DNA from: a virus
Taxonomy: Duplodnaviria; Heunggongvirae; Uroviricota; Caudoviricetes
Reading direction: 5' to 3' (one strand)
Length of the DNA: 15,479 bases
Virus record (IMG/VR): IMGVR_UViG_2695420487_000018
The notes under the pieces were generated by a model, which worked only from the letters and a program-made list of their open reading frames with translations, searched no databases and had not been told where the DNA came from. Within the stretch, counting starts at the first letter, position 1. The number at the start of each line of letters is the position of its first letter. The translations under genes and the position numbers were made by a program. Of this stretch, positions 1-15,479 are shown in pieces.

Positions 1-165
1 ATGGCAAAGCCGATCATCACGCTCAATGGCCTAAAAATCGTCATTATGTTGGGAATGCTGGTCATTATTCTCTGCGGTATCCGTTTTGCCGCCGAGATCA
101 TCGTGCCGTTTATTCTCGCATTATTTATTGCTGTTATATATAACTTATTTCACATAACACGTTGA
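1..165 (+). pseudogene. tqsA: Truncated 5' part of a host inner-membrane transporter gene (TqsA/YdgG-like); about 45 host-like codons, then 9 codons of AT-rich island DNA to a TGA
   Basis: ATG at 1; translation [45 protein letters not shown]... is a hydrophobic N-terminus I recognise from memory as E. coli-type TqsA (not searched). Composition switches abruptly to AT-rich at about 135-140. Confidence 0.45.
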
Positions 166-462
166 TTTAATTAAATAATTTTCACCACAAAAAGTGCCAA
201 AAATCGCAAAATGACTACACCAGTGACTACACCGTTCGGTGCACTGTATGAAACAACGTGGAACAAATAGACACAAGAAATATACAGGCGGATCATCTTT
301 CCAGGGGGAAGCGCACCAATTCATGAGGGGCGTTAATGTCGATATGGGGATCCCCACCTACCGGAATTTTTTTCCGGTTAAACGTTAATCAGGCTGGTGG
401 GCTTTACCTGTTCGGTAGGAGTTATGATTATCGTAATACCTTTCCCCCAATGGGGTAAAAGC

Positions 463-6381: not shown

Positions 6382-7539
6382 TTAATCGTCGTCCTGCGGC
6401 AGTTCCAGAATCTTTATAGCGTTCGAATCCACCACGCCACCGCCTAAATATTTCTGCGTGAAAATTTTGATAAAGCCCGGCTCTGTCAGGTTGTCCGGTC
6501 TGGTGCGCACGCCCGTTTCATGATCAACGATGTAATAACCGCGTTTGAAGTCACCCAGGGCGATAACGTTATCCGGCATAAATTCCAGATACTCCACCGG
6601 AAGCCCCAGCAACGTATCAGGATCACCCGCCTGTAAACGGTCGCGCCAGATGTAATCGCCGTTCGCGTTCTTCACCTTCTGAAGTTTTGCCGCCGTCGTG
6701 GAGTTAACCACCCAGACCGCGTTTTTGCGGTATTTTTTACGTAATGCAAATTTCAGGTCGATCAGCGGGTCCGCAGATGTCCACGCCAGAGATTCGGAAG
6801 GTTTAATTACCTGCAACGTACCAAAATCACGCTCTTTGTCGTTCTTCTCTGCACGGGGTACGGATAAAAAACCTTTTGCTTTTTTGTCACCGTCGCCCAC
6901 AACCAGATCGCTTTCTTCGGTTTCCGTGAAGGTGTCGCCAATCTCACCCGTCAGCCATGAAAGGATGTCCACATCGGAAAAATCCACGATTTCCTGTGTG
7001 GTGCGCGGGTACGCATAGACCGGATACAGCTTAATGCTCACCTCGTTAATCTGCGGGGTGCTGGTCTGTTCGCGTGCCTTACCCTCTTCACCGTGGTTAA
7101 CGGTCGCACCGCCAGCGGAAACAAGCTGCTTAAACTCGTTGCTGCTGATTTTCTTCACGGTACAGATGCGGCGCATGGTGGATTCATCCGCCAGCATTCG
7201 CATGATTTCGGTGTTCAGCTCGGGGATAACGGTATAACCACCATCAGCGGGAACGCCTGTACTTAATGCGCGGGTTTCACCTGTCAGGATGTAGTTGCGT
7301 AGTTCTGCGGGGTCAGTGGTCTGACTGCTTTTACCTGGCTTGCTGCGCTCTTCGTCTGCAATGGCTTCAAGGCGGGAAATGTCTTTATCGAGGGATTCAG
7401 CTTTAGCGCGTAATTCGTCAAATTTTGCGCCCTCAGCATCGTTAAGACTGCGGTTTTCTTTTTCCGCGTTCTCCAGCATGTCGCGCATCTGATTTTTAAT
7501 GGCGGTTTTCTGCTGGCGTAATTCGATTATTCTCGGCAT
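6382..7539 (-). CDS. Major capsid protein (HK97 fold) with N-terminal coiled-coil delta/scaffold domain
   Basis: 385-aa ORF; first ~100 aa are coiled-coil-like (IIELRQQKTAIKNQMRDMLENAEKENRSL...), followed by a capsid-like body. Confidence 0.85.
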   Translation of the reverse strand: MPRIIELRQQKTAIKNQMRDMLENAEKENRSLNDAEGAKFDELRAKAESLDKDISRLEAIADEERSKPGKSSQTTDPAELRNYILTGETRALSTGVPADGGYTVIPELNTEIMRMLADESTMRRICTVKKISSNEFKQLVSAGGATVNHGEEGKAREQTSTPQINEVSIKLYPVYAYPRTTQEIVDFSDVDILSWLTGEIGDTFTETEESDLVVGDGDKKAKGFLSVPRAEKNDKERDFGTLQVIKPSESLAWTSADPLIDLKFALRKKYRKNAVWVVNSTTAAKLQKVKNANGDYIWRDRLQAGDPDTLLGLPVEYLEFMPDNVIALGDFKRGYYIVDHETGVRTRPDNLTEPGFIKIFTQKYLGGGVVDSNAIKILELPQDDD

Positions 7540-7677: not shown

Positions 7678-7754
7678 GTGGCCCCAGCGTCCTGGCACCA
7701 CGGGCGAGAATAATCATGATTCAGTTCGGGTAAAATATGCCGATCCGCTCAGTG

Positions 7755-7779
7755 AACAACGTGGAACAACCACGAACAA
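7755..7779. promoter_or_regulatory. 25-bp dyad motif AACAACGTGGAACAACCACGAACAA (core CGTGG-AACAA-CCACG) upstream of the capsid operon; a second copy lies at 14170-14194 and a half-copy at 252-266
   Basis: Exact or near-exact matches found by eye (1 mismatch between the two full copies); both lie inside runs of 10-bp-phased ACAA/TGTT. Confidence 0.55.
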
Positions 7780-7796
7780 ATAATTTACAAAACATG

Positions 7797-7820
7797 ACAA
7801 AAAGCCGGATTGCTCCGGCT
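7797..7820 (-). terminator. Rho-independent terminator ending the replication/regulatory operon
   Basis: Minus-strand RNA AGCCGGA-GCAA-UCCGGCU followed by UUUUUGU, 7 nt after the stop of the 7827..8099 gene. Confidence 0.65.
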
Positions 7821-7826
7821 GTGTGA

Positions 7827-8099
7827 TTATCTGTCCTGGTAATTTCGCCATATTTCATCACCAGCACCATCCATACCCATTTCGGCATAAGTGCGATCGA
7901 CCGCCTTTTTCAGGTCTCCGTAATTATCCGGCGGCTCCGGTGGCCTCTGTGCCTTCCTGGAACATTCCAGCCGTCGCATCGTGATGTGATGCCGTTCCTT
8001 GTCTGTCTCCACCAGTTGCATGACTTCACCCCATCGCGCCGACGCTCTCCGGTAAAAGCCTTTCGCCTCCAGTTCTTCCGCTATGCGGTCATGTACCAT
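7827..8099 (-). CDS. Small hypothetical protein (about 90 aa); possibly a PerC/ANR-like regulator (uncertain)
   Basis: Track ORF 7827..8108 starts at GTG; the ATG at 8099 has GGGGTGGGGA upstream. Motif AEELEAKGFYRRASARWGEVM is reminiscent of PerC/ANR-type proteins, from memory only. Confidence 0.55.
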   Translation of the reverse strand: MVHDRIAEELEAKGFYRRASARWGEVMQLVETDKERHHITMRRLECSRKAQRPPEPPDNYGDLKKAVDRTYAEMGMDGAGDEIWRNYQDR

Positions 8100-8111
8100 C
8101 GTCCCCACCCC

Positions 8112-12185: not shown

Positions 12186-12642
12186 GGCACACCCCCTGAC
12201 GAATACGGGCGACAAAAATCAGATGTGCGTGCGGCAGCTGGGCGCGGGCTTCGCGTTCAGTGGCTGCGGTAACGGTGTAAATATCAATGCTGCTGTGGTG
12301 GCACTGCATAAAGCGCCAGACAAAGTAAGGGCGTGCGGATACAGCCATGTGAAAGGCTCCCAGATGAATTTTAAGGAGTCTCGCTACTACGCTGCTAAAC
12401 ATGGTGGCGAGACGTAACAGGGTTAGCAGACTGGTCATCTGGAAACCAGCGAGCACAAAGGCTCCCCCGTTACGCCCCGCCATAATGCGGGTATGGGTAG
12501 GTTTACGGACACAAAAAAACCGCTTATCGGATGTGGGCGGCTGTCCGCCAGATGTATTCAGGCTGCTAAACCCGGTCGCCATGTGGGCGACGGGGGAAGC
12601 ATACAGCCCCGTGATAATTTTTTGCAAGCGGTTTTTACGCAT
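12178..12642 (-). CDS. Hypothetical protein; C-terminal about 55 aa paralogous to the 12635..12907 product
   Basis: Track ORF 12178..12684; ATG at 12642. C-terminal motifs FVWRF, TEREAR, ARIRQG are shared with the upstream gene, with third-position differences (GTC/GTG, CGC/CGT). Confidence 0.45.
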   Translation of the reverse strand: MRKNRLQKIITGLYASPVAHMATGFSSLNTSGGQPPTSDKRFFCVRKPTHTRIMAGRNGGAFVLAGFQMTSLLTLLRLATMFSSVVARLLKIHLGAFHMAVSARPYFVWRFMQCHHSSIDIYTVTAATEREARAQLPHAHLIFVARIRQGVCRA

Positions 12643-13706: not shown

Positions 13707-13895
13707 TTAATGAACTGCCTTGCAGCTATCCTTCCAGGCCAGAACCTCGGATAAAGACCAGCCAACGGAACGACCGCCAAGTTTACGACGTGATGGGAAT
13801 TGTCCGGCCTTTTCCAGGCGGTAGCGACACGTACGGCTAAGGCCGGTTAGTTTTTCGCATTCTTTTTCACGTATAAACCGATCAGTGCTTAACAC
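13707..13895 (-). CDS. alpA: AlpA-family transcriptional regulator (excisionase-like HTH)
   Basis: 62-aa ORF ...KECEKLTGLSRTCRYRLEKAGQFPSRRKLGGRSVGWSLSEVLAWK... matches the AlpA pattern; GTG start with AGGGGGG 6 nt upstream; sits next to int. Confidence 0.8.
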   Translation of the reverse strand: MLSTDRFIREKECEKLTGLSRTCRYRLEKAGQFPSRRKLGGRSVGWSLSEVLAWKDSCKAVH

Positions 13896-14047
13896 TATTG
13901 CCCCCCCTTTCGTTTCTTAAAGAGTCATCAGGTGTCTTATTGTGTCGTATTGTTCCCGCTAGAGTGATGAATGGCAAATATTGAGGATGTATGATTTACA
14001 GAAAATGAAACAGTAAGAATAAAATCTTTTAAATTCATGTTAATACA

Positions 14048-14094
14048 AAGGCATAAAATATTGTTTCATGCCTTTTTTCTCGCTCTTTAAAGAG
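14048..14094. other. Hairpin AAGGCAT-N13-ATGCCTT followed by TTTTCT on the plus strand, then a perfect 12-bp palindrome CTCTTTAAAGAG (14083-14094)
   Basis: Read directly from the sequence; lies between int and alpA; the strand on which it would terminate is ambiguous. Confidence 0.4.
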
Positions 14095-14169
14095 TGATTC
14101 GCTAGTGTATAAAAAACCAGTGACACATTAAAAATCAGCCACTTATAAATCTGTATGCTTTTTCGCCTC

Positions 14170-14220
14170 TTGTTCGTGGTTGTTCCACATTGTTGCTCAT
14201 TGTTGCACGTTGTATCTGTT
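14170..14220. promoter_or_regulatory. Second copy of the 25-bp dyad motif (rc AACAATGTGGAACAACCACGAACAA) within five 10-bp-phased TGTT units, upstream of alpA
   Basis: 14171-14220 reads tgttcgtggt/tgttccacat/tgttgctcat/tgttgcacgt/tgtatctgtt; one mismatch relative to the 7755-7779 copy. Confidence 0.55.
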
Positions 14221-14261: not shown

Positions 14262-15479
14262 TTATTTTCTTCTGGCTACTGGTAGCGTGGTTACGTTTTC
14301 ATGTGTTCCCGCCAGTATCCCTAACCGCTCCGTCCACATATCCAGCGCATTGCGTTTAGCATCCAGATAACGGGAATGATTATAAACTCGCTGCATTCCT
14401 GGCATCTGGTGGCCTGTAAGCTGCTCCACGACATGCGGATCAACGCCTAAATCGTTCAGCATCGTTGTAAAGGTGCGCCGGATGTCATGCAGTGACCAGT
14501 GAGGATGATTAAGCCTCCTGTGCGCTAATCTTCCATACTGCGATACGCTGGCCTCCTGTTTCACTTCCCCCAGCAATAAGCCCGTGTGCCTGTTCTGCTC
14601 CACCAGCTGCGTGACGAACGGCAGGATCGCTTCCGGTATGGGCCGGAATATTGCGACCTTCGTTTTGCTGTGCTCCTTCGGAACGGTCCATAGCATTTCC
14701 GTAAAATCCCACTCTCCGATCTCCGATAACCTCAGTTCTACCGTTCTGGCTCCGAAGACAATCAGGAGGCGGATTAACGCGACGTAGTAAGGGGAGAATA
14801 TTTTTTTGTCCAGTGCCTGCAATAATTCGCCAAGTTCTTTGTTACTTAAGACACGTTCGCTTATATCCGGTTTTTTCCCAACGTCCGCCACGTTCAGATC
14901 GTCCAGAACGTTGCTGATTGCATAGCGCCGCCTACGGCAGAACTTAAGCGCCTGTTTGCACGCCTGTAGCACGAATCCGGCAGTAACAGGCGTTCGCTTT
15001 GCCACCTGGTCAAAACAGGCCAGCCAGTGCCGTAGCTCGCATTTATCCAGCGGCATAGCACCAATCTGCTGTATTACGTGATTATTAAGTCGCCTTTTCA
15101 GGGCGATATAATCCACGCGGTTTTCCTTTACGTAATACTCAAGCCAGTAGGTGAGCGCATCGCCAACCGTTACCGGCTTTAACGCTTCCTGTACGGTGTA
15201 ATTAAGCTCATGACGTGGATTTTTCCCCTCTGCCAGCCATGCGCGACACTGGGCGGCTTTTTCCCTGGCTGATTTCAGGCTCAGATCAGGATAACTTCCC
15301 AGCTTAATGCGTTCGGGTCGTGTCTCCCTTCCCGTTCCGGCCCTGTATGTGAAATACCAGGTCAATTTCCCTGATGTTAAATATTTCACGCTCAGGTTTC
15401 CGCCATCACTATAAAACGTGTTTTTCTCCGCTGGCTTACCATGAAGTTTCCTTAGCAAGGTATCGCTCAGTTTGTTCAT
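14262..15479 (-). CDS. int: Tyrosine site-specific integrase (P4-like, with N-terminal arm-binding domain)
   Basis: 405-aa ORF starting at the window edge; catalytic-domain motifs HDIRRTF and RVYNHSRY; N-terminus GNLSVKYLTSGKLTWYFTYR typical of arm-binding domains. Confidence 0.9.
   Translation of the reverse strand: MNKLSDTLLRKLHGKPAEKNTFYSDGGNLSVKYLTSGKLTWYFTYRAGTGRETRPERIKLGSYPDLSLKSAREKAAQCRAWLAEGKNPRHELNYTVQEALKPVTVGDALTYWLEYYVKENRVDYIALKRRLNNHVIQQIGAMPLDKCELRHWLACFDQVAKRTPVTAGFVLQACKQALKFCRRRRYAISNVLDDLNVADVGKKPDISERVLSNKELGELLQALDKKIFSPYYVALIRLLIVFGARTVELRLSEIGEWDFTEMLWTVPKEHSKTKVAIFRPIPEAILPFVTQLVEQNRHTGLLLGEVKQEASVSQYGRLAHRRLNHPHWSLHDIRRTFTTMLNDLGVDPHVVEQLTGHQMPGMQRVYNHSRYLDAKRNALDMWTERLGILAGTHENVTTLPVARRK

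Follow-up and report, generated by a model that had tools for sequence, protein, structure and literature searches.

We examined a 15,479-nt stretch of viral DNA (IMG/VR record IMGVR_UViG_2695420487_000018; hereafter, the window) that represents a capsid-forming phage-inducible chromosomal island (cf-PICI), with emphasis on a 25-bp sequence found upstream of both its capsid operon and the regulatory gene alpA. Our analysis revealed that this sequence is part of a row of short direct repeats with a period of exactly 10 bp, and that the island carries four such arrays—in the attR arm, upstream of the capsid gene, in the spacer between int and alpA, and in the attL arm, the last of these lying outside the window. 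The arrays are very likely functional protein-binding sites common to the attachment (att) arms and the capsid promoter, and AlpA, acting as an activator, is somewhat favored as the protein that binds them. The complete reading that we propose, to which we assign a probability of roughly 45%, holds that AlpA directly activates the capsid and packaging operon, that the capsid promoter acquired a copy of the att-arm array, and that the units of the arrays (TTGTT in E. coli islands, TACYY in those of Erwinia and Citrobacter, and TTACC in a third lineage) co-evolve. The element is of a kind already known, the excisionase arrays; the copy at the promoter of satellite structural genes, together with its covariation with the att arms, appears to be newly described.

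The sequence AACAACGTGGAACAACCACGAACAA occurs at positions 7755-7779 (+ strand), and its reverse complement recurs with one mismatch (AACAATGTGG...) at 14170-14194, as a sequence-only reading of this DNA had claimed. This recurrence is well beyond chance: with up to three mismatches allowed, two matches were found in the window against 0.00 expected (200 shuffles), and both sites are non-coding according to the RefSeq annotation. The two copies described in the sequence-only reading are thus real; what it overlooked is the phased direct repeat, a third site at 252-276 and the attL site. The repeated unit is TTGTT(C), or (G)AACAA, arranged head to tail, and the spaced pair AACAA-N5-AACAA was found six times in the window (0.06 expected), confined to 252-266, 7755-7779 and 14170-14204. 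At least three phased units at a 10-11-bp period, which we took to define an excisionase-type array, were present in every case—five in the int-alpA spacer and three in each of the other arrays, always with the exact 10-bp period. Read on the coding strand, the unit is TTGTT in the attL, capsid-upstream and attR arrays and inverted in the int-alpA array, which lies 47 nt past the int stop codon and 274 nt ahead of the alpA start. Over 200 units, the consensus approximates cGwGGAACAAc.

The sequence-only reading had placed the core of the motif in an inverted repeat, CGTGG-N5-CCACG; on this view, a dimeric regulator would recognize the repeat at both sites. This dyad is perfect at 7760-7774 and carries one mismatch at 14175-14189, yet it is not significant on its own (two matches at up to one mismatch against 0.66 expected, a count equaled in 25 of 200 shuffles), and the att-arm arrays do not contain it. 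The dyad is also gone from the capsid-upstream region of the type represented by loci L006 and L071, which reads CGTGGTTGTTCCAGG, and from the alpA-upstream arrays of L006, L008 and L009, all of which retain the phased cores. Likewise, in six islands with 90-100% identical AlpA proteins and 84-100% identical integrases, the int-alpA cores, (A)ACAA, stay precisely in phase at 10 bp; their spacers diverge, and the dyad vanishes. Symmetry is not the conserved feature; the 10-bp-phased TTGTT(C) cores are. Because the dyad is neither significant nor conserved, we rejected a dyad operator, and recognition by a dimeric regulator strikes us as very improbable.

The att-arm context, which identifies the arrays as excisionase-type, was missed in the sequence-only reading, an account given without site-specific recombination. 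For the attL arm, we relied on L001, an almost identical island for which both junctions are present and which supplies the arm lying just outside the window. Each arm contains a doublet of TGACTACACC, probably an integrase arm-type site (repeated in the attL arm at L001 16521-16542), followed 17-20 bp further on by a three-unit array; ~80-100 bp separate the doublet from the core TGCTGTTAT in one arm and ~130-150 bp in the other. The arrays are distinct from these integrase sites in both arms, and the same holds, with other sequences, in other lineages; all related islands for which this end was recovered have the attR-arm array. The doublet has a counterpart in the helper-embedded PICIs (HE-PICIs), a group to which locus L004 belongs. 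Their 'doubled motif', tgTGTATTGCantgTGTATTGCa, which Williams and colleagues proposed could be bound by four integrase arm domains (PMC10111431), shares the geometry of the window doublet: a 12-bp period, co-oriented copies and asymmetric distances from the att center. It thus corresponds to the two copies of TGACTACACC and not to the 25-mer. In that study, the doublet was called unique to HE-PICIs, and neither TTGTT arrays nor a capsid-promoter copy was described (PMC10111431). The 2 + 2 doublet half-sites across the two arms fit an integrase tetramer. In L002, which has an AlpA identical to that of the window, an integrase 90% identical and another insertion site, the doublet reads TTAACTACACC and the arrays are unchanged. 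Because the doublet changes in this locus while AlpA and the arrays stay the same, we infer that the integrase binds the doublets and that an accessory protein binds the arrays. Doublet variants seen in other PICI clades are, besides TTAACTACACC, TGTGCAGTCAG, TGTGTGGTCAG, GTGTAGTCAA, GGTATATCACT and GGTATCCTATA.

Upstream of the capsid gene, the PerC-family gene is followed by an intrinsic terminator, and the capsid operon therefore needs its own promoter; no terminator was found in the window between the array and the capsid gene. To locate this promoter, a phylogenetic footprint was built from 16 capsid-upstream regions (E. coli, Citrobacter, Erwinia, Rosenbergiella and uncultured), anchored on TTTTGTAAATTAT—a near-invariant element abutting the array that is present in nearly all cf-PICI capsid modules examined from these four genera, with a variant in Gilliamella. 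The elements follow a common order: the stop codon of the upstream gene and the terminator, TTTTGTAAATTAT, three 10-bp units, a gap of 17-19 nt, a -35 box, a 16-nt spacer, a -10 box, 5 nt and a leader hairpin. The distance from TTTTGTAAATTAT to the leader hairpin is 87-89 nt, a range of 2 nt, in 15 of the 16 lineages. The -35 box across lineages is TTTACA (TTTACC in the window) and the -10 box takes the form TATnnT in the 15 in-register lineages, the L071 type having TTTACA-16-TATGTT; the gap between array and -35 is 17 nt in that type and 19 nt in the window. With transcription presumed to start at ~7700, at the foot of the hairpin—a position placed by conservation alone—the array would span approximately -79 to -54, a location appropriate for an architectural protein or an activator acting from upstream. 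The window type and the L006/L071 type of capsid-upstream region have a 55-bp block in common and nothing else in ~290 bp; this block includes TTGTTCGTGGTTGTTCCAGGTTGTTC and lacks the dyad.

The promoter advanced in the sequence-only reading, TTGTTC-N16-TATTTT, fared less well. It scores 7/12 and is missed by a promoter scan, the third repeat unit doubles as its -35 box, and nothing in the sister capsid-upstream type corresponds to its -10 box, TATTTT (7737-7732); the conserved promoter is situated ~25 bp downstream of it. The conserved promoter of the window, TTTACC-16-TATTCT, itself scores 8/12, under the scan threshold, and the scan at 9/12 returned no promoter-like site. An upstream activator site would fit the PerC terminator, the conserved core promoter and the fixed 87-89-nt spacing.

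Several features of the capsid leader were also recorded. The leader (7701-7540, - strand) is structured, ~150 nt long and conserved across genera in cf-PICI capsid operons, with no Rfam match at the gathering score. It has a 5' hairpin, GTGGC...GCCAC, of which the window shows three pairs with both partners altered. A 3' helix, TGGTTTCACG/CGGAAACCA, stands directly ahead of the start codon, the window variant pairing CCAGGACGC with GCGTCCTGG. In L012, L013, L014 and L118, an intrinsic terminator hairpin with a T run lies between the array and the -10 box and replaces the -35 box, unlike the E. coli types, in which the terminator precedes TTTTGTAAATTAT.

The motif search in related islands that the sequence-only reading had suggested as a check found the arrays as phased cores, many of them without the dyad. 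Among 69 IMG/VR loci with an AlpA at least 87% identical to that of the window, the array was present in the alpA-upstream region of 64 out of 66 and in the attL arm of all 17 (17/17); it also occurred upstream of the capsid gene in 24 of the 25 cf-PICI loci carrying the AlpA allele of the window. More distant islands retain the unit as well: L120 (AlpA 63%, integrase 68% identical to the window's) has TTGTT arrays in both att arms and upstream of the capsid gene, and TTGTTC att arrays are kept in L137 and L120, whose AlpA proteins are 61-63% and integrases 68-76% identical. In other lineages the unit changes. The units that follow TTTTGTAAATTAT in Erwinia L014 are GTACCC, TTACCC and TTACCC, and the phased TACYY pairs of this locus (five in 21 kb against 0.6 expected, all on the gene strand) are distributed over attL (two), the capsid-upstream region (two) and attR (one, adjoining a GGTATCCTATAGGTATCCT doublet). 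Four of the five phased TACYY pairs of Citrobacter L013 are at attL and upstream of the capsid gene. In the lineage of L115 and L121, the sole phased TTACC pair of L121 adjoins the att doublet, one unit of its capsid-upstream copy being different, and the sole pair of L115 is upstream of the capsid gene. The capsid promoter of an island thus carries the unit found in that island's own att arms, which is the strongest evidence for a single island-encoded, lineage-specific protein serving both recombination and capsid expression.

A scan of IMG/VR for TTGTTC-N4-TTGTTC-N4-TTGTTC recovered PICI att arms plus many unrelated tandem repeats, so that enrichment was not measurable in this way. Exact arrays of this form are frequent in unrelated viral contigs (L153-L268), for instance TTGTTCCCAGTTGTTCCGAGTTGTTC in 13 contigs, often with an inverted GGAACAA at the flank. 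In L167 and L180, a TTGTTC array directly abuts a GGTGTAGTTAAT doublet. A different arrangement was observed in L014 (4680-4760) and L110, where four to five palindromic AGTACT(T) cores with a ~20-bp period lie upstream of an HTH_17-type excisionase gene (4835-5056 in L014); it differs from the 10-bp arrays at the att arms and capsid promoter of these two loci.

AlpA itself has the features of an excisionase. The protein belongs to PF05930 (E = 5e-17, 61.8 bits against a cut-off of 21) and matches the AlpA-family entry 8c3t of the PDB by sequence (E = 2e-6). A single-sequence structural model (predicted local distance difference test score, 86) had the same entry, the GIsul2 excisionase, as its best PDB match (template modeling (TM) scores of 0.79/0.85, 39% identity), followed by RdfS (8dgl, TM 0.68) and Pukovnik Xis (4j2n, TM 0.61)—all indicative of a winged-helix fold. 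The gene follows int on the same strand at a distance of 366 nt, and the integrase has an arm-binding domain, as expected of an excisionase-family partner. Experimental work on a relative is consistent with a regulatory role: overexpression of AlpA alone leads to excision and replication of EcCICFT073, the protein stimulates transcription from its own promoter, helper phages work through induction of alpA, and AlpA is needed for induction and transfer (PMC6092414). EcCIEDL933, the type to which the window island belongs, has the same int and alpA genes as EcCICFT073, and induction of cf-PICIs is abolished by alpA mutation (bioRxiv 10.1101/2022.09.08.507074). AlpA also behaves as an excisionase in PICMI (PMC10803314) and in GIsul2 (PMC9376610), both of which are excised when it is overexpressed. 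In the papers covered by full-text literature searches, neither an AlpA operator nor control of the capsid operon by AlpA was described.

The closest parallel among known systems is TorI of the E. coli prophage KplE1 (CPS-53), a small winged-helix excisionase with head-to-tail sites of 10-bp period between the core and the int start, beside a promoter. TorI binds five attL sites cooperatively, three of them just 2 nt apart with cores GTTCG, GATCG and GTCCG; this three-site cluster abuts the -35 box of PintS, TorI represses intS, and IntS uses arm sites with another motif (PMC2951348). As present in K-12, the sites read cAGTTCGtcatgGTTCGcttcaGATCGTTGACA, with a 10-bp period and a core much like TTGTTC(G); the core in the window is TTGTTC, often TTGTTCG, against GTTCG for TorI. 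The differences are that TorI shows 29% identity over 42 aa to the window AlpA and is not a PF05930 match, that its sites occupy one arm only, and that it represses and has no known copy of its sites ahead of structural genes.

P2 Cox offers a second parallel, being an excisionase that acts on phased direct-repeat arrays and combines excision with control of the early promoter and activation of the satellite promoter P4 PLL. P2 Cox and P4 Vis are both filament-forming winged-helix excisionases that also regulate promoters. The likeness lies in a single excisionase serving recombination and transcription; the difference is that Cox is helper-encoded, acts on a satellite and recognizes an unrelated repeat, whereas we propose a satellite protein acting on its own capsid operon. 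Filament formation by Cox has been reported, and RdfS of ICEMlSymR7A binds attP and its own promoter (PMC11963761). Like the proposed AlpA filament, those of RdfS, lambda and Pukovnik Xis and BldC consist of winged-helix proteins in head-to-tail oligomers with about one DNA turn per subunit; RdfS lacks a clear consensus motif, in contrast to the sharply defined core of the window, and none of these proteins has a known site at a capsid operon.

Two further candidates were set aside. The AlpA antiterminator of P. aeruginosa has only the name in common: it is a larger, Q-like protein (helices H1-H8, DNA contacts at residues 128-142; PMC9371919, PMC7969949) whose ABE model involves a single GGGACG between -35 and -10 and a terminator downstream of the promoter, whereas the window protein has 62 aa and an excisionase fold, with no downstream terminator. 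Replication-origin iterons were likewise rejected; the arrays occupy four loci and are unchanged whether the island carries a DUF927 primase, a protein of the DNA primase family or a RepA helicase.

On this basis, a mechanism can be outlined in which AlpA, as a winged-helix recombination directionality factor, would assemble cooperatively on the arrays into a short filament that bends the DNA. Binding in the att arms would promote excision, binding in the int-alpA spacer would give the known positive autoregulation of alpA, and binding at the capsid promoter would switch on the head and packaging operon, otherwise isolated by the terminator. Helper-induced AlpA would in this manner couple excision, its own amplification and capsid production. 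AlpA is the master switch of Gram-negative PICIs; if this mechanism is correct, the arrays would define its long-missing operator, with one helper-induced protein licensing excision, its own amplification and head production. The 10-bp-phased unit would moreover serve as a sequence signature for AlpA-controlled promoters and att arms in other satellites, and the lineage-specific units as natural specificity-swap controls. An integrase or a helper factor as the binder would likewise change the picture of satellite induction.

A number of observations weigh against AlpA as the direct activator. In the int-alpA spacer, the array has the opposite orientation, and 228-272 nt separate it from the best candidate promoter of alpA. 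Fillol-Salom et al. found AlpA to be without effect on Pint (PMC6092414), and EcCICFT073 would have an array between core and int if its attL resembles that of L001; in PICMI, transcription is unchanged by AlpA (PMC10803314). In PICIs that carry the same AlpA and lack the HK97 head module, no internal array precedes the late genes, and the only one besides is that of attR. Units differ among lineages while int and alpA are always co-inherited in the recovered loci, and both genes are 60-100% conserved across the families with TTGTT arrays; the covariation therefore fits AlpA and the integrase alike. An intact capsid array of three TTGTTC units also accompanies quite different alpA alleles, namely in the L004-type HE-PICIs (~14 loci), L093, L094 and L127. 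In L004-type and L007-type att arms there is at most one TTGTTCGT unit, and a search of HE-PICI and hpt-type att arms for the cognate of the capsid-promoter unit gave one TTGTTCGT unit or degenerate rows. These cases may reflect a recent exchange of head modules, since the upstream regions concerned are almost identical to that of L006, or a different or non-allele-specific binder. Finally, the middle unit is degenerate in L077 and L096, and the array has decayed in L007, L113, L114 and L129.

The integrase is the foremost of the other candidates, and an unlikely one. The arrays would then be extra arm-type sites for its N-terminal domain (residues 1-95), and the copies beside int and upstream of the capsid gene would be integrase-dependent regulatory sites or sinks. 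Besides the co-inheritance described above, the presence of an Arm-DNA-bind_3 domain and the position of the arrays next to the doublets in both arms are in line with this idea, as are the flanks that array and doublet units share (GGTTGTTCCAC versus GGTGTAGTCAC; GTTGTAG in the third attL unit versus GGTGTAG) and the regulation by KplE1 IntS of its own promoter via arm sites (PMC2951348). The doublets, however, already provide four half-sites, and no integrase is known to use arrays of 5-6 units far from any core or ahead of capsid genes. The documented activator is AlpA, not Int (PMC6092414), and excisionase sites of the TorI type have a like unit with like spacing.

Quite unlikely, in our view, is a helper-phage protein (a late activator, Xis or a CII-like protein) or a host protein that would act on the arrays or on TTTTGTAAATTAT and time capsid expression. 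The spacing TTGT-N6-TTGT resembles that of lambda CII half-sites; under the conserved promoter, however, the array does not straddle the -35 box as CII sites do. TTTTGTAAATTAT is invariant across genera regardless of the array unit, and the capsid array persists beside other alpA alleles, both of which would suit such a protein. The unit nevertheless differs between E. coli islands and those of Citrobacter and Erwinia, hosts whose global regulators are probably nearly identical. Helper phages do induce alpA transcription (PMC6092414), and crosstalk between PICI and helper excisionases is documented (PMC11773190), but the arrays are part of the att arms, and a BLAST search of 50,697 phage records (INPHARED) with a 71-bp block returned just two matches, both at chance level. 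The helper-phage late activator that the sequence-only reading had entertained is thus disfavored by the presence of arrays in both att arms, by a unit that changes with lineage and by the lack of INPHARED phages carrying the element. What remains of its proposal of one regulator for alpA and the head genes is that the same type of non-coding element stands upstream of both, with a shared island-encoded regulator, best read as AlpA, behind it.

About as unlikely is a capsid-upstream copy that is a relic, or a product of recombination between array copies, traveling with the head module. The spacers at the two 25-mer sites of the window are alike (24 of 25 nt), which suggests copying over selection on the cores alone, and the persistence of the array beside non-cognate alpA alleles and its degenerate or decayed variants can be read in the same way. 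Against it, two capsid-upstream types that are otherwise unlike over ~290 bp retain the 55-bp block, the distance from TTTTGTAAATTAT to the promoter and leader hairpin stays within 2 nt in 15 of 16 lineages, and distant lineages have their own att-type unit at this position. Activation through the capsid-upstream array by the PerC-family protein is scarcely credible: its gene is adjacent and its family is annotated as transcriptional activators, but cf-PICIs without PerC (L004 and L007) keep the array, PICIs of other types with PerC have no internal array, and the att-arm copies would be left unexplained. AlpA as the activator bound to the arrays remains the reading that we prefer.

The island itself is a cf-PICI of the EcCIEDL933 type (bioRxiv 10.1101/2022.09.08.507074) and sits in tqsA; the first 137 bases of the window are the 5' part of this gene, which the island interrupts. 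All genes of the window are on the minus strand and comprise, over ~15 kb, int, alpA, a primase/replicase and the island's own HK97-type head and packaging genes, with no tail or lysis genes among them. After the capsid gene, the operon continues with protease, portal, head closure, adaptor, HNH, TerS and TerL, ending at 1198. At least 80% of the island is carried by 102 complete E. coli genomes, and the int-alpA spacer of the window is 100% identical to that of strain 042. The positions of the features discussed are given in Table 1.

Table 1. Arrays, genes and regulatory features of the island (window coordinates unless a locus is named).
Feature	Position	Strand	Remarks
Capsid-upstream array, three TTGTTC units (7779-7774, 7769-7764, 7759-7754)	7755..7779	-	Same orientation as the capsid operon
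int-alpA spacer array, five units	14170..14214	+	TTGTT x4 and TTGTA on + strand; AACAA on gene strand
attR-arm array, TTGTT, TTGTT, TTGTG on gene strand	252..276	-	119-143 bp from the att core
attL-arm array, three units	L001 16561-16585		Between att core and int start
Doublet, TGACTACACC x2, 12-bp period	212..233	+	Probable integrase arm-type site
att core, TGCTGTTAT	129..137	unspecified	Junction of host gene and island within tqsA
Tyrosine integrase (int), N-terminal arm-DNA-binding domain	14262..15479	-	Pfam PF13356 (Arm-DNA-bind_3) and PF00589
alpA, 62 aa, winged-helix excisionase-type regulator	13707..13895	-	Pfam PF05930; proposed array binder
Candidate alpA promoter, TTGCCA-17-AACAAT (13977-13949)	13935..13977	-	Predicted
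DUF927 primase	11275-9143	-	Small open reading frames between alpA and this gene
Single-stranded DNA-binding protein (SSB)		-	Between DUF927 primase and PerC-family gene in gene order
PerC-family gene	7827-8108	-	
Intrinsic terminator	7803..7820	-	After the PerC-family gene
Near-invariant element, TTTTGTAAATTAT	7780..7792	-	Directly upstream of the capsid array
Putative capsid core promoter, -35 TTTACC (7734-7729), 16-nt spacer, -10 TATTCT (7712-7707)	7707..7734	-	Phylogenetic footprint
HK97-type major capsid protein	6382..7539	-	Opens the head and packaging operon

The alpA promoter is less sharply delineated than that of the capsid operon: an alignment of alpA-upstream regions showed several conserved blocks and no unambiguous promoter, the blocks including TTTAAA-16-TATAAA and a + strand terminator. 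Two degenerate units (AACAA at 13954-13950 and ACACAA at 13945-13940) overlap the -10 box and the start (predicted at ~13942) of the candidate alpA promoter, a position at which the L006 type has four phased AC(A/C)CAA units. Directly upstream of this candidate, at 13991-14003 (- strand), TTCTGTAAATCAT is a copy of TTTTGTAAATTAT with two mismatches, the TTCTGTAAA core of which is kept in five of six alpA-upstream variants; with 0.57 expected, this second match is non-significant by itself. TTTAAA-16-TATAAA (14086-14113) is a possible + strand promoter directed at the array and the 3' end of int. Antisense to alpA, at 14047-14078 (+ strand), the hairpin AAAGGCAT...ATGCCTTT, with a T run after it, probably terminates + strand transcripts arriving from the ylcI side; both sides of its stem are altered in the L006 type (GGCGTAAA/TTTACGCC).

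Outside these regions, a C4 antisense RNA (RF01695, 72.7 bits) at 12400-12487 (- strand) is the sole Rfam match in the window. Copies of GTTTAGCAGC lie beside it at ~12571-12561 and ~12401-12391, and its segment TCTGCTAACC is complementary to the flanking GGTTTAGCAGC sequences. From its sequence, it looks like an immunity RNA of the P4 CI / P1 C4 type, in the divergent region between an Icd-like operon and the YlcI/YnfO gene. L004 (NZ_OZ282453.1) is a cf-PICI located within the terminase large-subunit gene of a resident prophage, with two tandem AlpA-family genes (19563-19841 and 19905-20126) and a ProQ/FinO gene where PerC would be. Between TerL and attR, at ~490-590, the window contains three copies of an ACCCAAA(N)GGGT-like palindromic unit, and the same region of L004, L006 and L007 has GCGGGTTA and TAACCCGC repeats, three of each; these repeats are possibly cos or terminase-binding sites.

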